The notes under the pieces: generated by a model
Databases searched by the model: none
What the model was told of the DNA's origin: nothing
Seen by the model: the letters and a program-made list of their open reading frames with translations, nothing else
Position numbers and translations under genes: made by a program
IMG/VR virus record: IMGVR_UViG_3300008119_000006
Source of the DNA: a virus
Length of the DNA: 64,000 bases
Reading direction: 5' to 3' (one strand)
Shown here: positions 22,897 to 61,583 of the stretch, piece after piece
How the letters are laid out: every line of letters starts with the position of its first letter
Position numbering within the stretch: the first letter of the stretch is position 1

Positions 22897-23493
22897 ATGA
22901 TACCCGATATATTATGTGTCAACAATTTCTTTGATGACCCACACAAAATTGTTGAATTGGCCAAAAAACAAAAATATTATCTAACAAAAGATAACCCATC
23001 GATGACCAATCCAAAGTTTGGTTATAGTGGTATAAGAACATTACACATTTCTGATATATTAAGTGAAGAATTGTGTTATGAATTAAATAATAAGATAGTA
23101 TCCAAACTCTTTAAAGACAGCGTACCGTCCAAAATTAAATTACAATCCATATGTTTGTTTCATTGTTTATTTGATACCCATATACCAAATAATTCTTGGG
23201 TACACAAAGACACCTCTTTATATTCTGGTTTAATTTATTTAAATGAAAACTTTGTGGATAAATTTAATAATCATGGAACAAAAATATACAGAAATGGTGA
23301 AGAAACCAACATTAGTTATGAATTCAATAAAATGATATTGTATCGTGGAGATTATTTTCATTCTCCCAATTTTGGTTTTGGCCAAAGCATTGATGATTGT
23401 AGATTAAGCCTTAATTTTTTCATTAATGAAATTAATATTGATATGAAAAATTTGAATCGTGTGAAAGAAAAACATTATGATTACGAAACATGA
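22897..23493 (+). CDS. putative 2OG-Fe(II) oxygenase (DUF6445-like)
   Basis: 'NNFFDDP...GIRT...WVHKD...SGLIYLN...GT...FNKMILY....HS...RL'; HxD...H triad. Confidence 0.7.
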   Translation: MIPDILCVNNFFDDPHKIVELAKKQKYYLTKDNPSMTNPKFGYSGIRTLHISDILSEELCYELNNKIVSKLFKDSVPSKIKLQSICLFHCLFDTHIPNNSWVHKDTSLYSGLIYLNENFVDKFNNHGTKIYRNGEETNISYEFNKMILYRGDYFHSPNFGFGQSIDDCRLSLNFFINEINIDMKNLNRVKEKHYDYET

Positions 23494-24049
23494 GTGGTGG
23501 TCAACTCCCGTTTGGGAAATAGACACTGGTTTAAACTATCTTTTTAATGATAAATTATTGGAAGAATTGAATGGTACGATACCAAAAAATTCACGCACTA
23601 ACCTATGGGAATATTCAACTCCGTGCTTGAATATTTTAAAAGATAAAATATTTGAATCTTTGGATAACACGGTAACTGAATACTTTCCAGACTTTTACCC
23701 TTACAATCCATGTATTATGTTTGGCTGGATTAATGAAAATCTTAAAGGTGTGGGTAACCCACTACATGACCATGGAGGTTCATTATTAACCTGTACTTAC
23801 TATGTTAAATCTCCGGCCGATTGTGGTGATTTGTTATTGGTTGACCCTAGAGGTGGTGTAAATTGGGAATGGTTGGAAGATGGTGGTATTCGTGGCATTA
23901 AATACAAAAGAGTTAAGCCGAAAGAGGGTAAATTGGTGTTATTTCCGGCATATGTTTTACATGAGGTTGAGAAAAATATGTCGGATGACAAAAGGATTAG
24001 TATTACTACAAATATACATAATGGATCAGTATCAAATATTAGTAGATAA
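23477..24049 (+). CDS. putative 2OG-Fe(II) oxygenase (TIGR02466-like)
   Basis: HDH, TYYV, GDLLLVDPR, PKEGKLVLFPAYVLHEV, RISI. Confidence 0.82.
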   Translation: MITKHEWWSTPVWEIDTGLNYLFNDKLLEELNGTIPKNSRTNLWEYSTPCLNILKDKIFESLDNTVTEYFPDFYPYNPCIMFGWINENLKGVGNPLHDHGGSLLTCTYYVKSPADCGDLLLVDPRGGVNWEWLEDGGIRGIKYKRVKPKEGKLVLFPAYVLHEVEKNMSDDKRISITTNIHNGSVSNISR

Positions 24050-24052
24050 ATA
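24045..24052 (+). promoter_or_regulatory. T4 late-promoter-like element
   Basis: GATAAATA (consensus TATAAATA) about 25 nt before the Cys-rich gene. Confidence 0.45.
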
Positions 24053-24076: not shown

Positions 24077-24559
24077 ATGACATTACCAGCCTCGGGACCC
24101 ATAACCATATCCAATATCAATACGGAAATTGGCCAAGCGCCTACTTTTTCCTCATCTTTAAACTTTTTGAATGGGTTATTGAAATCGGCGCCAGCATCTC
24201 CTAATATGGCGGCCTTTTACAGTAAGGCATATTATCAAAGCAACAATGAAGGTAATTGTAACAATGGTAATTGCTCTGAATCTGGCGGTCCAAACGGTAA
24301 TTGTACAAGTAACTGTAATTGTGGGGACACAAATTGTAGCAATTGCTTAATTGCAGGTCCATCAGATTGTTCGAATTGTTCAAATTGTAATGCAATTAAT
24401 TGTGCAAACTGTGATAGCCAACCATTTTTGCAAAATAATTGTAATTGTGCTTGTTCATATAATTGTACACAAAACGCTCCGTCTTATAATTGCACCACCT
24501 CCACCGTAAGTTTTAACTGTGCGTGTGCTTGTTGGATTTGTGCTTGTGCTTGTTGGTAA
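24077..24559 (+). CDS. Cys/Asn-rich protein; putative RiPP-like substrate with tail-adhesin-like N-terminus
   Basis: 60 Cys-free residues starting MTLPASGPITISNINTEIG, then 23 Cys in 100 aa, ending CACACWICACACW; AAGGA RBS. Confidence 0.8.
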   Translation: MTLPASGPITISNINTEIGQAPTFSSSLNFLNGLLKSAPASPNMAAFYSKAYYQSNNEGNCNNGNCSESGGPNGNCTSNCNCGDTNCSNCLIAGPSDCSNCSNCNAINCANCDSQPFLQNNCNCACSYNCTQNAPSYNCTTSTVSFNCACACWICACACW

Positions 24560-24575
24560 ATAAAAAAGGATTATT

Positions 24576-26015
24576 ATGATATTTGAAATATATGCTGAAA
24601 AAAATTCTACTGATGGTAAGAAGTTTTACTATGATAATGTAAATTCAATTTTGAAAGATGAAACTGGTTTTGTTTATGAATATCCAGAAATAAAAAAACC
24701 TAATCTAAAAGAAACTGTACCTTTTTCGAAAGAAAATCCACTTAAAAAATCAAAAAATATTGATTTGATTAAAATTCAATTAGGTTTATCTTGCAATTAC
24801 ACCTGTGACTATTGCAGTCAAAGATTTGTTGAAAGGCCACCAGAAACAAGCAAAAAAGATATTGAAGAATTTATGCGTAAACTGGACGCATTAAACATTA
24901 CTGAAGAATCTGGTTTAAGAGTAGAATTTTGGGGTGGCGAACCATTAGTATATTGGAAAACTTTAAAACCTTTGGCCGAAGCTTTTGCTGAAAGATATAG
25001 CCATTGGAAAAAGAAAGTTAATTTCAGTATGGTAACCAATGGATCACTATTAACAAGAGAGATTTGTTCTTGGATCTACTACATGGGATTTAGTGTTGGC
25101 ATCAGTCACGATGGTCCTGGCCAATATGTTCGTGGTCCTGATCCGTTTGATGACGCTGAGAAGAAAAAGATTATCTTGGAGTTTTATAACATCATGAGGC
25201 CACAAGGCAGAATTAGTTTTAATGCCATGTTGAATAATAAAAATATTGACCGTAAAGCAATTTATGATTTCTTTGCTGAGTTGACTGGTGATCCATCAGT
25301 TCCAATTGGTGAAGGTGGATTCATTGATGCGTATGATGATGCAGCAGTAAATAATTCATTAATTACATTAGACGAACACTTTAATTACAGAAGAAAATCT
25401 TTTGGCGATATTTACGCCTCCCAAGGCAGTATTAATTTTGGTATGGTCTTTACCAAAATTGATAATTTTATTAAAGGCACATTGGCTCATGTTGAAAACA
25501 AATATGTTGGCCAAAAGTGTGGTATGGAAGAACCAACAACAGTTGCACTTGATTTAAAAGGTAATATTGTAACTTGTCAGAACGTTTCTATCGTTGAGAA
25601 TAGTAAGAATGGTGAACCACATTATGGTGGTAATCTAGATGATTATGATAATGTTAGCTTAACATCTGCCACACATTGGATGAATCGTGTGAGTTGTTCG
25701 GATTGTCCAGTTCTACATATCTGTAAAGGTTCTTGTATGTATTTGGACGGAAAACATTGGGATGTAACTTGTGATAATGCTTATTCGGATGCCATTAGTT
25801 TATTTGCTTTGGCATTAGAAAAAATAACAGGTGGTTATATTCCTGTTACGATTAAAGGTGAAGGTTTACCTTTATCACGCCAAGATATTTTTGGAACAGT
25901 ATATAAACATGAAGAAAAACCCACAAGAAAAATTATACCAATTAAAGTTGTTGCAGAAAAAATTGGTGAATTGAATGATGTGGAAATTTATGGAAAATCT
26001 AGAGTAGAGGTATAA
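24576..26015 (+). CDS. radical SAM protein with SPASM domain (peptide/protein maturase type)
   Basis: CNYTCDYC (CxxxCxxC), FWGGEPL, VTNG, ISHDG; C-terminal CG...GNIVTC...CSDCPVLHICKGSC...C. Confidence 0.92.
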   Translation: MIFEIYAEKNSTDGKKFYYDNVNSILKDETGFVYEYPEIKKPNLKETVPFSKENPLKKSKNIDLIKIQLGLSCNYTCDYCSQRFVERPPETSKKDIEEFMRKLDALNITEESGLRVEFWGGEPLVYWKTLKPLAEAFAERYSHWKKKVNFSMVTNGSLLTREICSWIYYMGFSVGISHDGPGQYVRGPDPFDDAEKKKIILEFYNIMRPQGRISFNAMLNNKNIDRKAIYDFFAELTGDPSVPIGEGGFIDAYDDAAVNNSLITLDEHFNYRRKSFGDIYASQGSINFGMVFTKIDNFIKGTLAHVENKYVGQKCGMEEPTTVALDLKGNIVTCQNVSIVENSKNGEPHYGGNLDDYDNVSLTSATHWMNRVSCSDCPVLHICKGSCMYLDGKHWDVTCDNAYSDAISLFALALEKITGGYIPVTIKGEGLPLSRQDIFGTVYKHEEKPTRKIIPIKVVAEKIGELNDVEIYGKSRVEV

Positions 26016-26687
26016 ATGTCGGTAACAATAACACCAAATTTACAAGAAAAAATTGATTTTTTTGATAGTATGGTAAATATCACTAGTGTTGAGATTTATA
26101 ATAATCCAATTGAATACAAACAATTGATTGGTGGTGTTGAGTGTTTTATGTTTAAGTTATTTAAAAATGAACATTTTATTGAATTGGTTATACCAAAAAT
26201 ATTTTGTTCAGAACCTCTTCCACAAGAAGTTATACAAAATAAAAGTCAAATTGATATGTTGATGGAAGGTTATTTTGATAGAAAGTCTTGTACAGATAAT
26301 GATTGTACATTGTGTATCAATACCGATTATTTGGATTCTTTTTATTATTTAAATCCAGAGACCGATATCATTGAACAAATTCATAAGGCCACAGCCATAA
26401 CGGAAATTAGTGTGATACAAGCTCAATTGTTGGAAAAAATTAATGAATTTGAGTTTGTGGAAAATATTAAGTTATATAACAATAGTATCTCAAATTATAT
26501 TGTTATTAATTGTGATATGAAACATTCAAACGATACAAATATCTTTACAAAATATTCAGGTACATTTCCAATTGAAGTTTGTGAAGATGTTGAACAACAC
26601 CCCAATATAGTTGAAAAAATAAAAGAATATTATAATAATACTATGCCAAAAACTTTAGAAGAACACACCAACATTTTACCACTATGA
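26016..26687 (+). CDS. hypothetical protein in modification cassette
   Basis: Abuts the radical SAM stop and overlaps the halogenase start. Confidence 0.65.
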   Translation: MSVTITPNLQEKIDFFDSMVNITSVEIYNNPIEYKQLIGGVECFMFKLFKNEHFIELVIPKIFCSEPLPQEVIQNKSQIDMLMEGYFDRKSCTDNDCTLCINTDYLDSFYYLNPETDIIEQIHKATAITEISVIQAQLLEKINEFEFVENIKLYNNSISNYIVINCDMKHSNDTNIFTKYSGTFPIEVCEDVEQHPNIVEKIKEYYNNTMPKTLEEHTNILPL

Positions 26688-28207
26688 AATATACAATTAT
26701 TGGTGGAGGTACGGCAGGATGGTTAACAGCTCTTTATGTTAGACATATTTGTCCAAAAGATGAAGTGGTTGTAGTTGCAAGTAGTGAGATAGGAATATTG
26801 GGTGCAGGCGAAGGTACTACACCACAATTCGTTGAACTGATGAACGAAATGAATATTCCAATCTCTGATATCATTAAAAACGCCAAAGGTACATTTAAAA
26901 ACGGTATTAAATTTACTAATTGGAATGGAGATGGTAGCCATTATTATCACGGGTTTCAAGATTACTTTAAGAATACCGATGAGCGAGCAAATGCCGATTT
27001 TAAACCATACTACTTGAATAAGATTTCATCTGGCGATTCATTCAATGATATCAATCTAACATCATATATTTCAGAAAAAAATCAAGTAAAAATACACAAA
27101 GAAAATTACGAATCATACGGAGCATATGCGTTACATTTTGATGCCAATCTATTGGCAAAACATTTACAGTCCGTTGGTCTAAAAAGAAATATTAAATTAA
27201 TTGATGATGAAGTAATTTCTATTAATAATGATTCTGAAGGTTTTATTAAAAGTTTTGATTTAAAATCACAAGGATTAATGACAACCGATTTTGTGTTCGA
27301 TTGCACAGGATTTAAAAGATTAATTATTGGTCAACATTATGGTTCTAAATGGAAATCATACAAAGAGCATTTACCATTGAACCGAGCACTTCCTTTTTTC
27401 ATTGATAATGATGGCGAAGAATTGCCACCATATACAGAATCAATTGCAATGAAACATGGATGGGTGTGGAAAATTCCCGTGCAAGGTCGTCATGGGTGTG
27501 GTTATGTTTTCGATTCTAATTTTGTTTCAGATGAAGATATTATTAAAGAATTAGAAGAATATTTTGGCCACAAAATAACAAGCCCAAGAGCATTTAATTT
27601 TGATCCCGGTTGTTTTGAGGAGGTTTGTGTAAAAAATTGTGTTGCTATGGGTTTAAGTTCGAGCTTTGTTGAACCTCTAGAAGCAACAAGCATATGGGTA
27701 ACTATTCTAATGTTAAAGAGTTGGGGAAACAACAAAGAAAAAATATTAGAAAAAGACTTAAATATAATTAAAGACTTTAATGATTCTATGAAACGGACAA
27801 ATTTAGATGTTTTAAATTTTATACACTTCCACTATAAAACAAAGAGAAACGATAGTGAATTTTGGATAAATTTTTCTACAAAAAATAAAATTCTACCATT
27901 TATTGAAGATTTAAATTTAATAATAAAAGATAATATAATTGAAAAACACAATTTAACCTATCTAAATGATTTGGAAACAAACAGAATCAATCCAAGCATA
28001 AAACATATACCAATGTTTTCAGAAAGTAGTTGGTTACAAGTTGGATCTGGTATAAAGTATTATAGTTCTGAGATGGCTAAAAAAATATTAAACCGAGATT
28101 TTAAAGATTTTACAAAAACTGAAAATGATTTGACCGAATTATTTGAGTTAGAAAGTAGTTTTATGTTTCACCATAATGATTATATTGAGGAACTTAAAAA
28201 TACATAA
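26684..28207 (+). CDS. flavin-dependent tryptophan halogenase-family protein
   Basis: GGGTAG, GAGEGT, GTFKNGIKF (position of catalytic Lys), WVWKIP (WxWxIP), FVEPLEATS. Confidence 0.9.
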   Translation: MKYTIIGGGTAGWLTALYVRHICPKDEVVVVASSEIGILGAGEGTTPQFVELMNEMNIPISDIIKNAKGTFKNGIKFTNWNGDGSHYYHGFQDYFKNTDERANADFKPYYLNKISSGDSFNDINLTSYISEKNQVKIHKENYESYGAYALHFDANLLAKHLQSVGLKRNIKLIDDEVISINNDSEGFIKSFDLKSQGLMTTDFVFDCTGFKRLIIGQHYGSKWKSYKEHLPLNRALPFFIDNDGEELPPYTESIAMKHGWVWKIPVQGRHGCGYVFDSNFVSDEDIIKELEEYFGHKITSPRAFNFDPGCFEEVCVKNCVAMGLSSSFVEPLEATSIWVTILMLKSWGNNKEKILEKDLNIIKDFNDSMKRTNLDVLNFIHFHYKTKRNDSEFWINFSTKNKILPFIEDLNLIIKDNIIEKHNLTYLNDLETNRINPSIKHIPMFSESSWLQVGSGIKYYSSEMAKKILNRDFKDFTKTENDLTELFELESSFMFHHNDYIEELKNT

Positions 28208-28863
28208 TGATTATTGAAAATGTTTTTGATAGTACAATCGTAAGAATACAATGTCAAAATGAAGAACTTTATCGTAATGAAGATTTAACAAAAAGTGTTG
28301 ACCACGTTTTGAATATGCCTACGGTGAAAAACAGAAAACGAAATGACAAAGGCGATTCACATAAGGGTAACGGTTTAACTTCTGTTGGTCAGTCATACTT
28401 AGATTTAATTCACTTACCTGGTGCTTCAAACTTAACCAATTGGATTACAGAACAATTTCTTTTGGTACACAAACAATTAGGTGTTGACAAAGAAGTAAAA
28501 TCGGTGTATTATAAAAGAAGTTGGGCAAATAGACTATTTCGTGATGGCCAAGGATTATGCCATAATCATGTTAAACTGGATGAGTATATGTCTGAAATGA
28601 CCCAATACTCACCAGAGAATTTTAGACCAGATGCCGTTGGAATTTTTTATGTTGATGTACCAGAAGGCAGTTCAGATTTAGTTTTTATACGCAACGGTAA
28701 AGCAGATACATATATTCATGAATATGATGAATGTGATAGGTACTATTTAAAACCAAAACAAGGAGAATTAGTAATACATTCACCAGAAGTATATCATGCT
28801 GTTAGTGTCCATAATAGTGATTTGCCTCGTAATGTATTTGTATTCGATATAGATTATGTTTAA
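28207..28863 (+). CDS. putative 2OG-Fe(II) oxygenase (TIGR02466-like)
   Basis: SWAN, HNH, GIFYV, PKQGELVI...YHAV, RNVFVF. Confidence 0.75.
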   Translation: MIIENVFDSTIVRIQCQNEELYRNEDLTKSVDHVLNMPTVKNRKRNDKGDSHKGNGLTSVGQSYLDLIHLPGASNLTNWITEQFLLVHKQLGVDKEVKSVYYKRSWANRLFRDGQGLCHNHVKLDEYMSEMTQYSPENFRPDAVGIFYVDVPEGSSDLVFIRNGKADTYIHEYDECDRYYLKPKQGELVIHSPEVYHAVSVHNSDLPRNVFVFDIDYV

Positions 28864-39317: not shown

Positions 39318-40475
39318 ATGGCCGTAATCTCCATACCAACATCAGTCGCTGGCGTTTCTCTACCTGGCCCCCTAGGTCAAATTGCTAAAGGTCCACTTGC
39401 CGCTTTGTATGGTGGCAAAGGAGTACAAACCTTAAAGTATCCTTCTGACCTTGCTACTGATGCCACTAAAAATCATTATGTACAATTTTCAATTAAAGAA
39501 GTTATACCCGCTGGGTATTCAACAACAGGACCAACAACTCCTGGCCAAAGCATCAATCTTAATGGTATTGCTCAGGCAACAGGAGCTATTGGTGAAGCAA
39601 TAAGTAATGGAATTAAAAGTGCCGCTAGTGGTTCTTCTGAAACTACACAAGAATTAATTGGACGAGCCACAGAGGGAATTGGTGATGGTTATAAAAAAAT
39701 TGGTGAATATATTCCCACCTCATTACAAATTTCACCCACAACAACACAAGCGAAAGCATATATTTCTTTATATATGCCAGATACATTAATGGCACAGTAT
39801 TCAGCCGACTGGCAAGAAATGAGTTTAGGTGATATGGGCACAGGAATATCTACATTAAGGATGATTGACCAATTAGCCACTAATGCAGGACAACAAGGAA
39901 CTTTTACCTCTGGAGATTTAGGAAAAAGTTTAGGTAATTTAGCATCAACAGATCCAGCAGTTACAGCAACAGTTGCAAACTTATTGGGTGCGAGTGGTAT
40001 TGGTAGTAATTTAATTGATGCTAAAGTGATTGGTGACGTTATATTAAAAGGCCAAGGTTATGCAATTAACCCACAATTGCAGATGATTTTTAGAGGTGTT
40101 GGTTTTCGTAGTTTTCAATTATCTTTTATGTTTACTCCAAAATCTTTGGAAGAATCTACTGAAGTTGACGATATTATTAAAACATTTAAATATCATTTTT
40201 CGCCTGGATTTGAAGCCGGCAAAACCGATTCAACACAAAGTATGTTTTTGACTTCGCCTTCAATATTTAATGTACAATTCAAAATTGGCCAAAACGAAAA
40301 TCAGTATACACCAAAATATGGTGATTGTGTTTTAACTGATATTGACGTTAATTATGCACCAAATGGTTTTGCTGTACATGAAAACGGTGCGCCAGTACAA
40401 ACAACACTCAATTTAACATTTAAAGAAATTGTTATTGTTGATAGAGATAAAATTGCTAAAGGAACTTTAAGATAA
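39318..40475 (+). CDS. gp48: baseplate tail tube cap gp48
   Basis: LKYP, ISLYMP, NP.....F.G...RSF...F.F.PKS..E, VNYAP, L.L.F.E. Confidence 0.85.
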   Translation: MAVISIPTSVAGVSLPGPLGQIAKGPLAALYGGKGVQTLKYPSDLATDATKNHYVQFSIKEVIPAGYSTTGPTTPGQSINLNGIAQATGAIGEAISNGIKSAASGSSETTQELIGRATEGIGDGYKKIGEYIPTSLQISPTTTQAKAYISLYMPDTLMAQYSADWQEMSLGDMGTGISTLRMIDQLATNAGQQGTFTSGDLGKSLGNLASTDPAVTATVANLLGASGIGSNLIDAKVIGDVILKGQGYAINPQLQMIFRGVGFRSFQLSFMFTPKSLEESTEVDDIIKTFKYHFSPGFEAGKTDSTQSMFLTSPSIFNVQFKIGQNENQYTPKYGDCVLTDIDVNYAPNGFAVHENGAPVQTTLNLTFKEIVIVDRDKIAKGTLR

Positions 40476-53147: not shown

Positions 53148-56100
53148 ATGTCTTTAAATTTTAACGTTGATCCGTATTATGATGATTTTGATCCTGCAAA
53201 GAATTACCATCGTATTCTTTTTAAGCCTGGCTTTGCCGTTCAAGCTCGTGAATTAACACAAACTCAATCTATTCTTCAAAATCAAATTTCTAATTTTGCT
53301 GACAATATTTTTAAGCAAAATACTCCTATTACTGGCGGCCAGATAACCACCAATTTAAATTGTTTTTATGTTAAATTACAAACAACTTTTAATAATGTAA
53401 CTATCAGTCCAATAACTTTTGTTGGAAAATCAGTTCAAGATATTACTGGTACTGTTAAAGCTCGTATTATTGCTGCAGCTTCTGCCAGCGGGTCAGGTGC
53501 TGGCGGAGATCCTCCTACAATAATTCTAACCTATACATCTGGCGTACAATTTACTAATGGTGACATAGTATATGATGCAACAACTTTGCAACCAATTTGT
53601 CAAGCTATCACTTCTGCTTCTACCGGTTCAAGTTCTGTTGCTTCTGTTTCTCAGGGTGTTTTTTATATTTCTTCCAATTATACCGCACCATCGGGTGAAG
53701 TAATTACTAAAGGCACTTTTGTACAGGTTAATCCACAATCTGTTATTATAAACAAATATGATAGTATTCCAAATTTAAGAGTTGGTTTAGACATTGTAGA
53801 ATCAATTACAACTTATTTAAATGATTCTTCTTTGTTAGATCCGGCTATTGGTGCTTCGAATTATCAAGCGCCTGGTGCAGACCGTTATAAAATTGATTTA
53901 GTATTAGAAACAAGGCCATTATTATTAGGTAACGATGATTCATTCATTGAATTGATTCGTGTAATTAATGGTGAGGTGCAAACAATTGTAAACGGAACAG
54001 TTTATAATGTTATTGATGATTATTTTGCAAAGCGTGATTATGAGACCAATGGTGATTATATTGTTAATGATTTTAAATTAACTCCAAAAGCAAACACCGC
54101 AGACGCTTCAAATAATAGTTATATTATGAGTGTTGGTAAAGGTATTGCTTATGTTCACGGTTATCGTATTGAAAATCAAGCACCTATTGATTTAACAACA
54201 ATGCGTTCCAGAACCACCGTAGCACAAAATAATAATCCAACATATATGTCTTATGGTAATTATTTTTATGTTGATACAGTTCGTGGTGCAAACGGACAAT
54301 TCTTTGATACAACCACATATTCAAACGTAGATTTTCATTGTGTGTCTGTTGCAAATGTAAGTGTTGCAACTTCTAGTTCTTATTCTTCAACTGTTGTTGC
54401 AACAGGATATATTCGTGGATTAGAATTTGACAAGGTTAATGGCACAGATGCAAATTCTTATGTGTATCGTTTATATGTTGACAGTTTACAAGCAAATAGT
54501 ATTAGTGCTAATGTAACAACTGCAACACCTAATACTGTAACTTTTCCATCTTATTTTTCCACATCAAATACTGCCTATCCAGGTATGACCATTAGCATTT
54601 TTAATGGTAGAAATGCTGGTGATAGCCGAACAATTGTTGCTTATAACGGCGTATCAAAAGTTGCAACAATTAATCAAAATTGGACTACAACTCCCGACAC
54701 AACATCACAATATACATTAAATTTTGATATTAAATATGCAAATACCGTGGTGTTTGCAAATAAATCGTCCTTCCCCGCACAAATATATTCTACTGCTATT
54801 ATTGACGAATCAAGCAAAGCAAATGGTGTTCCATCAGGATTAACAACATTACAAAATCCAACATATCCAGAATTAATTTTCCCTGTTGGAAGTCCTTATG
54901 TTGCCAACTTAACAAGCACAACATATACCACCCAACAGTTGTGGAGAAATGTTGGTTTCACTTCTACTGGTGTTGGTTCTACGGTTTCAACAGCGTTACA
55001 GTATACTGGCGACTATTCAAATGTTATTCGTCACATTGGTACTGGTGGATCAACACTCTCATCTTCTTTAGTTAGACAAAATTTTGTTATTGTTGTTACT
55101 GCTATTGGTGGAGGTTGTACATTAAATGTAGGAGAAATTGTTCCTTGGACAACAGCAGGAAGAACAGTAGTTTTAAGTGCAGACGCTTCAACTGCAACAC
55201 TACAAGCATCAGATGTCGGTGGTACATTTACAGCAACTATTCTTGCTACTGTCTATGCAGTCAATGCTGACAATACCGCTCACTTGTTACGAAATAAAAC
55301 ATTAATAGCAGGAAACACATCTGTTATTAATTCTAGTAATACTCAAGTAGCAACATATACATTTGTTGATAATACGGCCACAACATCAAAAGGTCAAGTT
55401 TATATACAAAATGCCGGAATAGTAAATCCAGGAATTTCACAAAGTTTATATTTATCAGATGTTAAAAATATTGTTCGTGTTATTGATACTGGCAGCGTAG
55501 GTACTTTACCAACTGCTTCTATGTTGATTGCAGGTTCTTCATATGATATAACTAGTAGATTTAATTTTGATAACGGTCAAAGAGATGGATTCTATGACCA
55601 CGCTTCAATTACATTAAAACCTGGATACCCTAAACCTTCTGGTAATATGCTAGTTGTTTTGAACTACTATCAACATACTGGTGGAGATGGTTATTTTAGT
55701 GTACAATCTTATTTGAATGAAGTTTATCAACAAATTCCACAATATACTAGTAAAGCCGGTATAGTATATGCACTTAGAGATAGTTTGGATTTTAGACCAG
55801 CAAGATTGAATGCTCAAACTTTATTTACTTTCCGCTATTCAAATACTGGTGATACAACAAAGTATGGAGTATTTTTGCCGTATGATATGTCTACTTTTAC
55901 AGGTTATTATAATTATTATTTGGGTAGAAAAGATAAATTAGTTTTAACAAAAGATAAGAGTTTTAAAATTATTGAAGGAACTTCATCTTTAACTCCTTTA
56001 TATCCTGCTCAGCCTGATGGTTCACTTGTAATAGCAAATTTATCTTTGGATCCATATACTGGTTATTTGCCAACAGAAGCACCTTCTGGATTTATGCCAA

Positions 56101-59100
56101 ATTTATCCATCGAAAAAGTTAAACACCAACGATATACAATGCAAGATATTGCTGGTTTGGAAAATCGCATTAATAATGTTGAATATTACACATCTTTAAG
56201 CCAATTAGAACAAACTGCAACTTCTCAGCAAATTTCTGATGCTTATGGATTAAATCGATTTAAGAACGGTATTATTGTTGATGACTTCTCTAGTTACGCA
56301 ACTGCCGATACTTTAAGTCAGGATTATTCTGCTACCATTAATCGCCGTGAAAGAAGAATGACGGCATCACAAAGTGTTAAAAATTATCCATTAAAATCTT
56401 CAGCTTTAGCTTACAACATGGGATTGCCTTCTTCAGCAACCTCAAGTGCATTAGGTTATAATATTAGTTATGATGGTTATGTAAATTATTTTACTTTACC
56501 TTTCACAACAGCAAATGTGTTTAGCCAAAAATTGGCTTCTAGAACAACCAATGTTAATCCTTTTGCTTATGTAACGAGTGAAGGCGTGTTATCTTTATCT
56601 CCAAATATGGATAATTGGGTTGATACAAATTATTCTCCAGCATTATTAATTACCAATCCAGATTTACAAGTGTTTCAAGCTAGCGAAAATATTAGCGTGT
56701 TATCTTCTGGTGACTGGAAAACAATTTCAGGAACAACAACTAGTGCAACAACTTTTACCGAAGGCCATGGAATCAATCCAAGTCCGTTTGGTCGGGTTGG
56801 TTTTTCAACTACATCAAGTGTGACGACTTTGCAACAAGCAAAATCAGACATTCTTGGTCCGTATGATAGAATTGGTAGTACATATGCATTAAATAACGGA
56901 TATATTACTGACATTTCTGTTTTGCCATATATTAGGCCACAACAAGTTGTTGTTCGTGCTGGAAGCTTATTGACAAATTCTCCAATTACGGCATATTTTG
57001 ATAACACAAGTATTATAAATTATATTCGTAAACCAAATATTATTGAATTAACAAATGTTGTTGGTGCATTTAAACAAGACGATGTATTAGGTTATTATTT
57101 AAGTGGTATATTCACTCCAACCGCAAGAGTTGTTGGGGTATACAATTATGCCAATACAAGTAACACAAGACTATATGTTGCGGCTGATCCTTCTTCTATT
57201 ACATATAATAATTCTTTATCTTTAGTAAATGGTTTTTTTGACGTAAACGGAATTTACCAAGGTAATACAGCATCAGGTACAATAGCCTCAACCAAACATT
57301 TTGGCGGTAGAATCTTAAACGCCAACACGACAACATCAATTCAATTGTCTAAATTGGCCGCAACAACAGATGGTTACTATACCGGCAACACAATTTACAT
57401 TTGTGCTGGTACAGGTAAAAATCAATCTGCAACAATTTCTAATTATTATGGTGCAAACCAAGTTGCTGTGTTGGCTTCTTCTATTACTAGTGCTAATGGC
57501 GACATTTATTCGATTGGAAGCATTTCAACTGATGAAACCGGATCTTTCTATGGTATCTTTAATTTACCAGACAGTACTTTCCGTACTGGCGAAAGAGTAT
57601 TACGAGTAGACAATAGTACTGGAGGCAATCAAACTTCAGCAACAACATATGCAGAAGCAACTTACTACGCTGAAGGTTTACAAACAACTCAACAACGTGT
57701 AGATTTTGGTGCTTCTCCTGCAGGTGCCAAAGGTACATTTACTCAAACATCACAACAACAATTAACATCGGTTTCAACATCTATAAGTCCTTGGGATCCA
57801 GTTGCACAATCATTTATTGTATCTAAGAGAAATTATCCAAATGGTTTCTTCTTAAATTCCATTAAATTGTTCTTTAGGTCTAAACCTACCACAGAAAATA
57901 TTCCTGTATCATTGTATATTGTTGGTACTTTAAACGGTTATCCTAATGGCGACATTTTGGATCACTCTATTGTTAGTCTGACACCAGATATGGTGAATAC
58001 TTCTGAAACTCCACAGTACTTAGATGGCACAACTGCAACGGTATTCCAATTTTCTGTACCAGTTTATATTCAATCTGATGTATTGTATGCGTTTATTGTA
58101 AAGACGGACAGTAACCAATACACAGTATGGACTGCTGCTAACGGAGATACTGCTATAGGTTCTTCTGCCAAGAATTTACCAACTGATAATACACCTTCTG
58201 TTGTTACTAAAATTGGCGGTGCACCTTATGTTGGTGGTTTGTTCATATCTCAAAATTCTCAAACATGGAGCGTTGACCAAAACCAAGCTTTAATGATGGT
58301 TGCAGACCAATGTATATTTACAACAAGTGCAACACCACAAATTCCTTATGTGATACCAAGATTATCTCCACAAAGAGAATTAATTGAACAATCGGTTGAT
58401 TATTATACAAATGCAAACACCGTTTCAAATACTTTGAATTCAATTTCAAATTCCACAACTTATGTTGACGCATTTAATATTACAACAACTGATTTTACTC
58501 CTACAACAACACAAATTTCATATAATTATGTTGCTACTTTAGCAAGCGGTTCAAGTGCTGGTAACAAAAATATTACACCTGGAAAATACGGTACTGCAAC
58601 GGCAGATGACATTTATTTGGATGACGGTAATGGAGAACGAGTAATTTTACCATATTCGAATAACTCATTTATATTAAATGCAACACTATCCTCTACTGAT
58701 TCTTTTGTTAGTCCAGTAATTTCTGATGCTGGTTTAAGTGCTTATGCAATTAATTGGAACATCAATAATTGCTCAATATCAAACAATTTAATTCAATTGG
58801 CCTCTGGTGGAACAGGTTACAGTAATAACGCAAACCTTTCTGTAACAATATCTGCTCCAACAGGAGTTGGTGGTTCTCCTGCAATTGCTGAAGCTAACGT
58901 AGAGAATGGAGTTATTAAATCAATCTATATCACCAACGGTGGTTCAGGTTATTTGGAAACACCAACAATTACAATTATTGACGCCAATACCACTCCAGGT
59001 ACTGGTGCTTCCGCCAACGTAATTGGTGAAACTTCTCAAGTTGGTGGTCCTGCTCTTGCTAAATATGTAACAAGACCAATTCAATTGGCACAAGGTAACG

Positions 59101-59480
59101 ATTCTGGTGATATTAATGTATACTTAACTGCTTACAGGCCACCAAATACCGATATTAATGTTTATTACAAAATATTAAATCGTAATGATACTCAAGGCCT
59201 TAATAATAGTTCTTGGCAGTTAATGACAAAAATTAATAACAGCAATACACAATTTTCATTAACTAGAACAGATACTTATGAATATGCTTTTGCTCCTGGA
59301 ACAGCAGGTGTTGATGTAGGTTATGTAAGTTATGTAAGTTCAACAACTGGCCAAACATACACAACATTTAGTCAGTTTGCAATTAAAATTGTTTTAACAA
59401 CAACCGATAATACTTTTGTTCCATATGTAACAGATATGCGAGCTCTTGCTTTACCATCTAACGTAAACACAACATTCTAA
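53148..59480 (+). CDS. large virion protein, DUF4815 / VrlC-like
   Basis: NFNVDPYYDDFD..KNYHRILFKPG.AVQARELTQ.QSILQNQ, APGADR, RYTMQDI..LE.RI..VEYYTSLS.LE, RFKNG..VDDF, DPVAQSF. Confidence 0.9.
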   Translation: MSLNFNVDPYYDDFDPAKNYHRILFKPGFAVQARELTQTQSILQNQISNFADNIFKQNTPITGGQITTNLNCFYVKLQTTFNNVTISPITFVGKSVQDITGTVKARIIAAASASGSGAGGDPPTIILTYTSGVQFTNGDIVYDATTLQPICQAITSASTGSSSVASVSQGVFYISSNYTAPSGEVITKGTFVQVNPQSVIINKYDSIPNLRVGLDIVESITTYLNDSSLLDPAIGASNYQAPGADRYKIDLVLETRPLLLGNDDSFIELIRVINGEVQTIVNGTVYNVIDDYFAKRDYETNGDYIVNDFKLTPKANTADASNNSYIMSVGKGIAYVHGYRIENQAPIDLTTMRSRTTVAQNNNPTYMSYGNYFYVDTVRGANGQFFDTTTYSNVDFHCVSVANVSVATSSSYSSTVVATGYIRGLEFDKVNGTDANSYVYRLYVDSLQANSISANVTTATPNTVTFPSYFSTSNTAYPGMTISIFNGRNAGDSRTIVAYNGVSKVATINQNWTTTPDTTSQYTLNFDIKYANTVVFANKSSFPAQIYSTAIIDESSKANGVPSGLTTLQNPTYPELIFPVGSPYVANLTSTTYTTQQLWRNVGFTSTGVGSTVSTALQYTGDYSNVIRHIGTGGSTLSSSLVRQNFVIVVTAIGGGCTLNVGEIVPWTTAGRTVVLSADASTATLQASDVGGTFTATILATVYAVNADNTAHLLRNKTLIAGNTSVINSSNTQVATYTFVDNTATTSKGQVYIQNAGIVNPGISQSLYLSDVKNIVRVIDTGSVGTLPTASMLIAGSSYDITSRFNFDNGQRDGFYDHASITLKPGYPKPSGNMLVVLNYYQHTGGDGYFSVQSYLNEVYQQIPQYTSKAGIVYALRDSLDFRPARLNAQTLFTFRYSNTGDTTKYGVFLPYDMSTFTGYYNYYLGRKDKLVLTKDKSFKIIEGTSSLTPLYPAQPDGSLVIANLSLDPYTGYLPTEAPSGFMPNLSIEKVKHQRYTMQDIAGLENRINNVEYYTSLSQLEQTATSQQISDAYGLNRFKNGIIVDDFSSYATADTLSQDYSATINRRERRMTASQSVKNYPLKSSALAYNMGLPSSATSSALGYNISYDGYVNYFTLPFTTANVFSQKLASRTTNVNPFAYVTSEGVLSLSPNMDNWVDTNYSPALLITNPDLQVFQASENISVLSSGDWKTISGTTTSATTFTEGHGINPSPFGRVGFSTTSSVTTLQQAKSDILGPYDRIGSTYALNNGYITDISVLPYIRPQQVVVRAGSLLTNSPITAYFDNTSIINYIRKPNIIELTNVVGAFKQDDVLGYYLSGIFTPTARVVGVYNYANTSNTRLYVAADPSSITYNNSLSLVNGFFDVNGIYQGNTASGTIASTKHFGGRILNANTTTSIQLSKLAATTDGYYTGNTIYICAGTGKNQSATISNYYGANQVAVLASSITSANGDIYSIGSISTDETGSFYGIFNLPDSTFRTGERVLRVDNSTGGNQTSATTYAEATYYAEGLQTTQQRVDFGASPAGAKGTFTQTSQQQLTSVSTSISPWDPVAQSFIVSKRNYPNGFFLNSIKLFFRSKPTTENIPVSLYIVGTLNGYPNGDILDHSIVSLTPDMVNTSETPQYLDGTTATVFQFSVPVYIQSDVLYAFIVKTDSNQYTVWTAANGDTAIGSSAKNLPTDNTPSVVTKIGGAPYVGGLFISQNSQTWSVDQNQALMMVADQCIFTTSATPQIPYVIPRLSPQRELIEQSVDYYTNANTVSNTLNSISNSTTYVDAFNITTTDFTPTTTQISYNYVATLASGSSAGNKNITPGKYGTATADDIYLDDGNGERVILPYSNNSFILNATLSSTDSFVSPVISDAGLSAYAINWNINNCSISNNLIQLASGGTGYSNNANLSVTISAPTGVGGSPAIAEANVENGVIKSIYITNGGSGYLETPTITIIDANTTPGTGASANVIGETSQVGGPALAKYVTRPIQLAQGNDSGDINVYLTAYRPPNTDINVYYKILNRNDTQGLNNSSWQLMTKINNSNTQFSLTRTDTYEYAFAPGTAGVDVGYVSYVSSTTGQTYTTFSQFAIKIVLTTTDNTFVPYVTDMRALALPSNVNTTF

Positions 59481-59481
59481 T

Positions 59482-59709
59482 ATGATAGTTCAAATACCAG
59501 GCACCAGTTTAGTTCGTGATACAACAACAATGGCTTTAATTAATCAAGACCAAAATGGTTTAAACGAATATATGAAAAAAAGAAAGCTTTTGGAAAGTCA
59601 AAAAAACGAAATAAATAGTATGAAATCAGATATTTCTGAACTTAAAGGTGATATGCAAGAAATCAAACAATTAATTTTAAAATTAATGGAAAAGTCAAAT
59701 GGCAGCTAA
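59482..59709 (+). CDS. conserved small coiled-coil protein following DUF4815
   Basis: 'LVRD..T.A.IN.D...Y...K'. Confidence 0.75.
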   Translation: MIVQIPGTSLVRDTTTMALINQDQNGLNEYMKKRKLLESQKNEINSMKSDISELKGDMQEIKQLILKLMEKSNGS

Positions 59710-60871
59710 TACAATTCCAACACTTAGTTATGCCAATACCTTTGGCGATTGGGTGGTTGCAACAAATTTCTTGATTAATCAAAACAATCAAGCTTCAACT
59801 AATAGTTTTACAAAAGCGGCCGGTACATATTATTTCAATGATCCATCATTAGGTTTATCTGTTGCAAATAATGCAATTATTGGCGGTGGACTTCAAGTTG
59901 TCGGCTCAGGATCTTTTGTAACAGTTCAAAACGGATTAACCGCTGGACAAGGCACATTTTCAAATACAGGAACTTCATTAACTGTAACTGGTTCTTCCGT
60001 ATTCTCAAATACCATGTTTGCAAATGGAAATACTGGACTTGCTGTAGCCAATAGTGCCACAGTAGGAACAAATTTCACAGTAGGTGGTGCAACTTCTTTA
60101 AATACTCTATCTGTTTCAAATGGTGCATCGTTTTTAGGAACTACAGCCTTTAATGGTAGTTTAATTGTTGGTGGTGCTACCGCCTATAATTATAATACTG
60201 GCCAATGGAATATTAGTATCACGGGAACCTCAGGTAACGCAAATACTGTAACTAATGGTATTTACAGCAATTTATACTATTCCGATCCAACTTGGATTAC
60301 TGGAATTGCAAATACTAAAATTCTTGGGTTTATAACAGGTAGTCAAATTGCTCCAGGTTCAATAACAGGTAGTCAAATTGCAGGTGGCGCAATTGTTGGA
60401 ACAATTACTGGAACCGCTAACCAAGTTATTGCAAATAATAGTACAGGAAACATATTATTATCTACTCCACAAAATATTGGTACTGGTGCAAATTTTCAAA
60501 TTAATTCTCTTGGAGTTGGCACAGCAGGTTCAGGTACGGCTGGCGAAATTCGTGCAGTTAATAACATTACCGCATACTACTCAGACGACAGACTAAAAAC
60601 TCGTTTAGGTAATATTGAAGGTGCTCTAGATAAAGTAATGAGTTTGAATGGGTTTCATTATGAAGCTAACGAAACCGCACAAGCGTTAGGTTATGATGTT
60701 AAATCAGAAGTTGGCCTTTCCGCACAAGAGGTACAAGCAGTATTGCCTGAGGTGGTCGTACCTGCTCCAATTGATGAGAAGTATTTGACAATTCATTATG
60801 AAAGAATTATACCACTTTTGATTGAGGCGATAAAAGAACTCAAGGCCGAAGTAAATAGTCTTAAAAAATAA
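59699..60871 (+). CDS. tail fibre protein with C-terminal peptidase S74 intramolecular chaperone
   Basis: 'NITAYYSDDRLK...I..AL.KV..L.G..Y...GLSAQEV..VLPE.V...Y.....LLIEAIKEL'. Confidence 0.88.
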   Translation: MAANTIPTLSYANTFGDWVVATNFLINQNNQASTNSFTKAAGTYYFNDPSLGLSVANNAIIGGGLQVVGSGSFVTVQNGLTAGQGTFSNTGTSLTVTGSSVFSNTMFANGNTGLAVANSATVGTNFTVGGATSLNTLSVSNGASFLGTTAFNGSLIVGGATAYNYNTGQWNISITGTSGNANTVTNGIYSNLYYSDPTWITGIANTKILGFITGSQIAPGSITGSQIAGGAIVGTITGTANQVIANNSTGNILLSTPQNIGTGANFQINSLGVGTAGSGTAGEIRAVNNITAYYSDDRLKTRLGNIEGALDKVMSLNGFHYEANETAQALGYDVKSEVGLSAQEVQAVLPEVVVPAPIDEKYLTIHYERIIPLLIEAIKELKAEVNSLKK

Positions 60872-61005: not shown

Positions 61006-61341
61006 ATGCCAGCTGCCTATCAAAATCTCTACATAGAACAAGGAACCTCATTCAGTACCACAATTACCTTAGATGATGTCTATGGTGATATCTATGACTT
61101 GACTGGATATACAGCAAATAGTCAAATTCGTAAGTCTTATTATTCATCCAATGCTACAGCAGCATTTCTTGCAATTGTTAATGCCAATACAGGCACAGTT
61201 TCATTGTCCATGAGTACTCCTACAACAGCCAACATAGCAGCCGGACGTTATGTTTACGATACAATCATTAAGACACCTTCTGGTGATGCCACCAGAATCT
61301 TAGAAGGTGTTGTTGATGTATCTCCATCAGTTACGAGGTAA
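61006..61341 (+). CDS. conserved virion protein (BppU-like Ig fold)
   Basis: NLYIEQG..F...DLTGYTA.SQIRKSY...GRYVYD...RILEG; CATAAATA at 60966. Confidence 0.75.
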   Translation: MPAAYQNLYIEQGTSFSTTITLDDVYGDIYDLTGYTANSQIRKSYYSSNATAAFLAIVNANTGTVSLSMSTPTTANIAAGRYVYDTIIKTPSGDATRILEGVVDVSPSVTR

Positions 61342-61343
61342 TA

Positions 61344-61583
61344 ATGGCACTTGGTAATATAAAAGTCACAGTAGGAACTCCTACAAATCCAAGAGCAACC
61401 TCTATCACCTACGGAAGTAGAACTTTAAAGAGCGCTACTGATTTAAGTCTAGCAGGTGCAGGCCAAGGTTTTGCAATTGTTTATGAAGCTAATACAAATA
61501 GCTTTGTAACTTCAAATGTTATTGCTATTGCTGAAAATGCTATCGTTGCAAGTTTGGCATTGATTGACGGAGGTACATTTTAA
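61344..61583 (+). CDS. small virion protein
   Basis: Ends 'IDGGTF'; structural operon. Confidence 0.65.
   Translation: MALGNIKVTVGTPTNPRATSITYGSRTLKSATDLSLAGAGQGFAIVYEANTNSFVTSNVIAIAENAIVASLALIDGGTF

Follow-up and report, generated by a model that had tools for sequence, protein, structure and literature searches.

An asparagine-cysteine repeat protein family linked to radical SAM/SPASM enzymes and tail fibre modules in phage metagenomes: a candidate modified fibre adhesin

The viral record IMGVR_UViG_3300008119_000006 in IMG/VR was analysed as a single stretch of 64,000 nucleotides, referred to throughout as the window. It belongs to a T4-like aquatic phage with a G+C content of 35%, as seen from genes for gp59, a gp33-like co-activator and the baseplate. 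Among its genes is one coding for a 160-residue protein, P0001, with a strikingly uneven composition. Residues 1–60 contain no cysteine and residues 61–160 contain 23, of which 16 are preceded by asparagine, five by alanine, and one each by aspartate and isoleucine. The body is 23% Cys, 21% Asn and 6% Gly, with CxC and CxxC spacing all along the core, and this composition does not correspond to a glycine-rich, polyglycine-II receptor-binding body of the gp38 type. There are 15 internal NC dipeptides in the core, a number reached in none of 20,000 composition-preserving shuffles, and the protein ends in two CACACW units that are closed by its only tryptophans, residues 153 and 160. The split of the cysteines between the two parts, the 16 behind Asn and five behind Ala, and the duplicated ending were described in an earlier reading made without database searches (the sequence-only reading), and all are reproduced on translation. 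The gene is part of a co-directional block coding for a DUF6445 protein, a 2-oxoglutarate (2OG)-Fe(II) oxygenase, P0001, a radical S-adenosylmethionine (rSAM) enzyme with a SPASM domain, a 223-residue protein, a flavin-dependent halogenase, a further oxygenase and nucleases (Table 1).

Table 1. Positions in the window of P0001, its parts, and the neighbouring and fibre genes discussed in the text.
Feature	Position	Strand	Basis or remark
P0001 gene, 160-aa Cys/Asn-repeat protein	24077..24559	+	stop-free translation, homologues, residue counts
P0001 N-terminal folded adaptor domain (predicted role), residues 1-55, Cys-free	24077..24241	+	AlphaFold2, structure search, hhalign
P0001 Asn-Cys repeat core, residues 61-147	24257..24517	+	93-sequence alignment
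P0001 CACACW-I-CACACW tail, residues 148-160, both Trp	24518..24556	+	residue count
ATAAATA, T4-type late-promoter-like motif	24046..24052	+	31 nt ahead of P0001 ATG
DUF6445 / phrog_1644 protein	22897..23493	+	kept upstream in closest relatives
2OG-Fe(II) oxygenase, upstream neighbour	23477..24049	+	PF13759, 2.6e-18
Radical SAM/SPASM maturase, 479 aa, predicted modifier of core	24576..26015	+	PF04055
223-aa protein, fixed place after rSAM	26016..26687	+	position conserved; no family match
Flavin-dependent (Trp-type) halogenase	26684..28207	+	PF04820, 2e-97
2OG-Fe(II) oxygenase, downstream	28207..28863	+	PF13759, 7e-7; same BLAST cluster as upstream oxygenase
2110-aa structural protein (phrog_358), ahead of fibre	53148..59480	+	homologues ahead of fibre + Cys-rich + rSAM set in L070, L073
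S74-terminated tail fibre, candidate docking partner (predicted)	59699..60871	+	PF13884

Metagenomes contain 176 homologues of P0001, and 145 IMG/VR stretches encode a relative. Because these homologues share ten invariant alignment columns, eight of which are Cys or Asn, P0001 is a real gene and not a chance open reading frame (ORF). The family is plentiful in freshwater and marine viromes, where it forms several hundred clusters on contigs of 160–350 kb, and is known from metagenomes only. No Pfam, PHROG or NCBIfam model matches it, and comparison of the family profile with PDB sequences yields chance matches only. A tblastn search with the whole of P0001 against 50,697 cultured-phage records returned nothing, the low-complexity filter probably masking the core, and the N-terminal domain alone gave only weak matches to cultured phages. 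Full-text literature searches found no earlier description of the family, nor of rSAM-modified fibre proteins. Alignment of 93 sequences reveals scaffold blocks that are 85–100% conserved, these being GNCNNGNC; NCNCGN.NC.NC; NC.NCD.Q.(W/F)LQ.NCNCAC(T/S)YNC; and SYNC, and the CxC tail that follows the last block is variable. The window protein corresponds to a 130-residue consensus with three lineage-specific insertions, at approximately residues 68–76, 95–105 and 140–146, that are found in only 5 to 11 of the aligned sequences.

Family members range from 125 to 330 residues, and four C-terminal forms are seen on the same N-terminal domain and core: (a) bare, (b) with a Peptidase_S74 domain, (c) with a Hint autoprocessing domain, and (d) with an all-alpha domain. 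The S74 and Hint modules start directly behind the CxC tail, the S74 chaperone at C(F/L)(W/F)|SDD(R/T)LK and the Hint domain at C|CF(P/L)A(D/G). P0001 itself has no Peptidase_S74 domain with the S-D-x-(R/K)-L-K cleavage motif detectable with Pfam; about 15% of the homologues have a C-terminal one, and it stands right behind the CxC tail in the relatives P0008, P0072, P0083, L050 and L078. S74 domains occur in MyRF as well as in the trimeric fibres and spikes of phages, and both S74 and Hint self-cleaving modules are known from fibres and spikes. Form (d) is the commonest, being present at 47 of 67 loci (for example L017:10001-10909, NCSKIICAKLY...). Its all-alpha domain is about 170 residues long, starts at NCSKI(I/V)C, has the invariant residues W170, W188 and PW213-214, and ends in a hydrophobic helix. 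Its best PDB matches, the NEL domains of SlrP and SspH1 (Z 7.0–7.4), were rejected as lying below the noise level for helical folds. Matches in the Atlas are to unnamed viral clusters only, and in BFVD the domain also ends larger phage proteins, including a DUF4815 protein. In the tree of the associated rSAM enzymes, the S74 form at L050 is nested among near-identical all-alpha forms (L018 and L022), with the same CxC tail before either module. The C-terminal modules are therefore interchangeable, and the occurrence of either module beside nearly identical rSAM genes indicates a recent swap.

Linkage to modifying enzymes was counted over the 67 loci with distinct family proteins. An rSAM gene is adjacent to the family gene at 66 of them, in three gene orders and in several phage types; it lies downstream in forms (a) and (b), upstream in form (d), and one gene away in some loci. 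2OG-Fe(II) oxygenases of the same BLAST cluster as those of the window are present at 51 of the 67. The flavin halogenase has a narrower distribution, accompanying each of the ten distinct bare forms with a terminal Trp and none of the six ending in Gly or Cys for which there is enough flanking DNA, as well as one of three S74 forms that end FW|SDD. The Trp-ending bare forms span at least two clades of the rSAM tree, and the window conforms to their pattern in that a candidate target Trp and an intact halogenase co-occur.

The window rSAM protein has a CX3CX2C motif at residue 73 and a complete seven-cysteine SPASM domain (C315-X13-G-X4-C, C374-X2-C-X5-C-X3-C, C399). Its top NCBIfam matches are thioether-type peptide and protein maturases, namely PapB (1e-24), QhpD (4e-20), CcpM (4e-19) and the SCIFF maturase, none of whose curated cut-offs is reached (87 of 340 bits, 72 of 453, 69 of 500 and 45 of 425, respectively). 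The halogenase retains its motifs GGGTAG (GxGxxG), GTFKNGIKF (the Lys region) and WVWKIP (WxWxIP), is 26–40% identical to its cultured-phage homologues, and matches QhpG faintly (17 bits, cut-off 240). Neither a leader peptidase nor an exporter or transporter was found in the P0001 cluster with Pfam, PHROG and NCBIfam. A gene of about 220 codons always follows the rSAM gene in the bare and S74 forms (in the window and at L003, L006, L053, L054 and L078). The window copy has no match in these three collections, and the proteins in relatives are 15–18% identical with no invariant catalytic residues; a role as a specificity or chaperone partner may be envisaged. At L103:6385-10037, in a T4-like relative, two radical-SAM genes of 438 and 480 codons follow the family gene, with a 297-codon ORF between them.

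A second association is with tail fibres. The family gene lies directly after an S74-terminated fibre gene at L067, L070, L073, L074, L075-77 and L103, often with a 4-nt overlap, and directly after a fibre-like gene without S74 at L080; overall, it is directly behind a tail-fibre gene in at least seven lineages. According to the sequence-only reading, an N-terminus of the P0001 type recurs in small proteins encoded after S74 fibres, and these loci, apart from L080 with its S74-less fibre, bear this out. At L103 the preceding gene is the PHROG "long tail fiber protein distal subunit", and the family gene thus occupies the position of gp38 in T-even phages. The order at L070 and L073 is a protein of about 2000 residues, an S74 fibre, the family gene and the rSAM gene, the first two being homologous to the 2110-residue structural protein and the S74 fibre of the window. 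The fibre preceding the family member at L074 shares 75% identity with that of the window across the S74 region. In the window fibre, the PF13884 match covers residues 295–353 and the predicted YY|SD cut site is found as AYY|SDDRLK, in the context ...NITAYY|SDDRLK. It was also correctly noted that no gene with an M.LP.SG N-terminus comes after it, since the ORFs at 61006-61341 and 61344-61583 both lack this feature. The first of these two ORFs matches phrog_3304, "L-shaped tail fiber protein assembly" (1e-20). Fibres ahead of family genes have in common the sequence ...GN(I/V/L)(T/A/G)(A/G)Y|SD.(R/K)LK, and two preceding fibres that lack S74, at L080 and in Rhizobium phage Pasto, end at this same motif. 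Just upstream of the fibre-like and family genes of L080 are three tandem paralogous glycine-rich genes (L080:5284-8208), of which the one tested matches Pfam Gly_rich_2 (5.5e-7).

The relationship with fibres extends to cultured phages. Homologues of the window rSAM protein with 43–45% identity are encoded by Achromobacter phage JWF and Ralstonia phage RSP15, in both cases inside tail-fibre modules. The JWF fibre gp028 (L010:2802-4253) contains ...NCNCDCNCNCSC followed by a Hint domain, and the RSP15 side tail fibre ORF048 (L009:2431-3303) ends NTNCQCGN; each is one or two genes from the rSAM homologue. The NC/CxC repeat and the rSAM gene thus travel together even where the repeat is inside the fibre polypeptide. 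Radical-SAM cassettes have also been reported within the host-recognition cluster in a study of pelagimyophages.

The sequence GATAAATA is present at 24045-24052, just upstream of P0001, where a late-promoter-like motif had been pointed out from the sequence. It includes ATAAATA, which forms the core of the late promoter of T4, TATAAATA. This heptamer is three-fold depleted in the window (13 sites, with 40.2 +/- 5.7 expected), and all but one of the 13 lie on the + coding strand, a pattern consistent with selection against stray late promoters. It is also found ahead of baseplate genes at 39318 and 51774 and ahead of the fibre at 59699. Across the family, 35 of 61 distinct upstream regions have ATAAATA no more than 70 nt ahead of the family gene, for the most part between -27 and -41, compared with 4.6% of the other ORFs at the same loci. 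At loci of form (d) the motif falls within the rSAM gene, at its 3' end, and the bare forms without it, five in all, are directly behind a fibre gene.

The N-terminal domain has a confidently predicted fold. In the AlphaFold2 model, residues 1–55 have a predicted local distance difference test (pLDDT) score of 85–93 and fold into three short helices plus one strand, which is paired with the conserved (W/F)LQ strand. When this domain was compared with 48,161 PDB representatives, only one chain reached a Z of 2, the phage S16 gp38 of the gp37-gp38 tip complex (6f45_D; residues 2–46, Z 2.1, root mean square deviation 2.1 A over 45 aligned residues). The BFVD matches to the first 50–60 residues include two Gp38-domain proteins (probability 0.84–0.89, E 0.18–0.33). 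Profile alignment with hhalign shows the domain to be clearly homologous to the N-terminus of Vibrio phage nt-1 ORF127, which continues as an FG-GAP propeller (94.5%, E 7e-8), and to that of Rhizobium phage Pasto gp053, which is Gly-rich and whose gene comes directly behind the tail fibre (93.6%, E 2e-7). In the 162-residue metagenome protein P0163, the domain precedes a lectin-like body with the sequence GDPCxGxxKxL, which has no Pfam match and which we take to resemble SUEL/rhamnose-binding lectins. As the domain is found on nt-1 ORF127, Pasto gp053 and P0163, it is a modular head for different binding domains and not a leader specific to rSAM enzymes.

On balance, we are inclined to see in P0001 an adhesin-like protein, late and fibre-associated, with a core that the rSAM enzyme crosslinks. 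It would be built like a gp38-type adhesin, with a small folded N-terminal adaptor and a specialised C-terminal body, and the Asn-Cys body would be the substrate of the adjacent rSAM/SPASM enzyme. The modification would most likely consist of Cys thioether crosslinks of the ranthionine or sactionine type. Since the cytoplasm is reducing and bars disulfides, thioethers made there could serve as covalent staples. Thioethers from Cys to the side chains of Asp, Glu or Asn are known chemistry, with NxxcB as the example for Asn, and at the level of whole proteins CrpA/CrpC (PMC13692751) and QhpC/QhpD with the flavoprotein QhpG (PMC7876137) provide precedents. In the lineage of the window, the Trp of the C-terminal CACACW is probably halogenated by the linked flavin halogenase, and the flanking 2OG-Fe(II) oxygenases may hydroxylate P0001, both of these being presumably lineage-specific additions. 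The finished product could then attach by its N-terminal domain to a fibre end, such as the ...NITAYY exposed after S74 self-cleavage of the window fibre, and act as a chemically stapled distal tip. We put forward more tentatively, and at somewhat less than even odds, the complete scheme, for phages of several lineages, of a receptor-binding tip made in the manner of ribosomally synthesised, post-translationally modified peptides (RiPPs), in which the Asn-Cys repeat is stapled by the rSAM enzyme, is in some lineages halogenated on a C-terminal Trp and hydroxylated, and is displayed on the virion either through a gp38-like adaptor or as the fibre end itself, as in JWF and RSP15. The fibre-tip proposal of the sequence-only reading is partly supported, by the S74 and Hint fusions, the position behind fibre genes, the late motif, and a folded N-terminal domain that is common to other binding proteins and has S16 gp38 as its only PDB-wide structural match; profile comparisons find no sequence homology to gp38_N.

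A number of observations count against a fibre-tip role. The gene is in the replication region, near gp59/gp32 and amid oxygenases and nucleases, both in the window and in most T4-like relatives; in the window it is 35 kb away from the fibre genes. The closest distinct relative, L102 (64% identity), encodes a separate 195-residue GP38 (PF05268) protein two genes upstream, at L102:4542-5129. The sequence-only reading had suggested comparing core variability among relatives, and over the 93 sequences the core is strongly conserved, unlike the usual hypervariable receptor-binding tips. It has no confident fold in the AlphaFold2 model (pLDDT <40), and the hydrophobic helix that ends form (d) could signify membrane association. 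The chemistry of the rSAM enzyme is a guess by resemblance, because it falls below every curated family cut-off, and the link between Trp and halogenase represents only two or three independent events, given the few clades involved on the rSAM tree. What the data show are the family, its domain architectures, its gene linkage, the promoter motif and the fold of the N-terminal domain; the chemistry, the oligomeric state of P0001, its docking partner and its presence in virions are our inferences. A trimer prediction with three P0001 copies and the 93-row alignment scored 0.00 with the protein's own fold uncertain, and counts for neither side. For the proposed analogy to the gp38 anchor, the structural match to the S16 gp38 domain is weak (Z 2.1). 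The Gp38_N (PF21721) and GP38 (PF05268) profiles do not match any of 15 N-terminal domains at E up to 10, under conditions where S16 gp38 itself scores 1e-19 and 4e-73, respectively. An hhalign comparison of the N-terminal domain profile with a gp38_N alignment gives a probability of 0.4%; eight phage records went into this alignment, since looking for gp38_N relatives by word index gave two proteins only. Foldseek of the P0001 model against the PDB finds no match.

Three other explanations have to be weighed. P0001 could be a RiPP-like product outside the virion, with the N-terminal domain as a leader or recognition domain for the rSAM enzyme, and could work inside the infected cell or once lysis has occurred, for instance as an antimicrobial, as a signal, as a carrier of metal or halogen, or as a membrane-directed factor. 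The make-up of the cluster, with a Cys-rich ORF, a SPASM rSAM, a halogenase and oxygenases, is what such a pathway would look like, and the non-structural genome region in T4-like relatives and the hydrophobic helix ending the commonest form agree with it. There are precedents in the N-terminal protein domains of CrpA/CrpC that help substrate engagement (PMC13692751) and in cyanophage dioxygenase/halogenase arrays that have been read as secondary-metabolite pathways (PMC2938197). However, the N-terminal domain of nt-1 ORF127 and Pasto gp053 occurs without a Cys core or a nearby rSAM gene and so is not an rSAM-specific leader, and S74 and Hint fusions and a place behind fibre genes are hard to square with a free peptide. 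The cluster, moreover, lacks a leader peptidase or exporter, the N-terminal domain is confidently folded, and the gene has a late-promoter motif; a free product of this type is thus unlikely, if still worth bearing in mind.

The position behind fibre genes is also typical of assembly chaperones, and P0001 could be a fibre assembly factor like T4 gp38 or Tfa, which binds the fibre end during folding and is not kept in the particle. Such factors are in use in this phage, to judge from the fibre-assembly-like phrog_3304 ORF after the S74 fibre. The partner fibres, though, already have an intramolecular S74 chaperone, the S74 and Hint modules of the family mark matured products and not helpers, an rSAM enzyme, a halogenase and oxygenases would be a heavy investment for a transient chaperone, and in JWF the NC repeat sits within the fibre polypeptide itself, all of which make this quite improbable. 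We give slightly less credence still to a metal-binding, metallothionein-like or metal-stapled fibre shaft in which the cysteines remain free as ligands and the rSAM enzyme acts elsewhere or on non-Cys residues. The CxC/CxxC spacing and the Cys content of the core would suit metal binding, and a trimer is suggested by the S74 fusions; phage fibres commonly hold metal ions on their three-fold axis (T4 gp37 and gp12), and the T4 gp37 needle has His-x-His iron sites. Against this, the linkage to a SPASM maturase is near-obligate, and the families closest to that enzyme all have Cys in peptides or proteins as their target; an invariant Asn beside Cys, too, is no usual metal-site signature.

If a crosslinked, fibre-associated P0001 is correct, it would represent a new way to build host-recognition hardware, with cytoplasmic covalent staples in place of disulfides, and would provide a concrete, testable protein substrate for viral flavin halogenases and for the oxygenase arrays noted in cyanophages since 2010. 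It would also extend rSAM/SPASM "RiPP" chemistry from peptides to virion proteins. Under the complete RiPP-style scheme, the halogenase and dioxygenase genes of T4-like phages from aquatic settings would gain their first natural protein substrate. Full-text searches of the literature turned up no case of a phage structural protein being enzymatically crosslinked or halogenated, and experiments could start at once from JWF and RSP15, which are in culture.

Several known systems can be compared with this arrangement. Halogenase and dioxygenase arrays of cyanophages such as Syn9 were described by Iyer et al. 2010, who proposed secondary-metabolite synthesis and did not name a substrate (PMC2938197), and for VirX1, the characterised halogenase of cyanophage Syn10, a review lists non-natural substrates only and no associated gene cluster. 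These arrays (VirX1/Syn10 and Syn9) share with the window a flavin halogenase and several 2OG-Fe(II) oxygenases in T4-like aquatic phages, but have no rSAM gene and no Cys-rich ORF, and no cultured cyanophage matched the window rSAM protein. The ranthipeptide, SCIFF and sactipeptide systems (PapA-PapB, CcpM and NxxcB) likewise place a SPASM rSAM enzyme beside a Cys-rich precursor; their precursors, however, are short with cleaved, disordered leaders, whereas the P0001 family has a folded N-terminal domain, no protease or exporter, and self-cleaving fibre modules. In Methanococcus voltae, CrpC and CrpA form a pair in which a three-cluster SPASM rSAM enzyme puts ranthionine crosslinks on a Cys-rich protein (PMC13692751). 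Judged by description only, this pair is similar in having a Cys-rich protein with N-terminal protein domains beside a SPASM rSAM, and different in being archaeal, cellular and without fibre-type modules.

A further parallel in enzyme content is the QhpC/QhpD/QhpG system (PMC7876137). There a SPASM rSAM enzyme crosslinks a small Cys protein, the quinohemoprotein amine dehydrogenase gamma subunit, and a flavoprotein then acts on Trp. In P0001, too, the predicted substrate is a small Cys protein and not a short peptide, and beside it are a SPASM rSAM and a flavoprotein whose fold is of the halogenase/monooxygenase kind. The differences are that the phage proteins score far below the Qhp cut-offs, that there are no dehydrogenase subunits, that the window flavoenzyme is a bona fide member of the halogenase family (WxWxIP), and that the setting is a phage. 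In architecture, the comparison is with T-even gp38. P0001 has no detectable sequence homology to gp38 of S16 (PDB 6f45), has an Asn-Cys repeat in place of the polyglycine-II sandwich, and has dedicated modifying enzymes alongside; we know of no enzymatic crosslinking of gp38. The two are alike as small two-part proteins, with a compact N-terminal domain of about 45–55 residues (in P0001 a predicted attachment domain) and a repeat-scaffolded body with short variable segments, and in some relatives of P0001, though not in the window with its 35-kb separation, the gene directly follows the distal fibre gene as it does in T-even phages.

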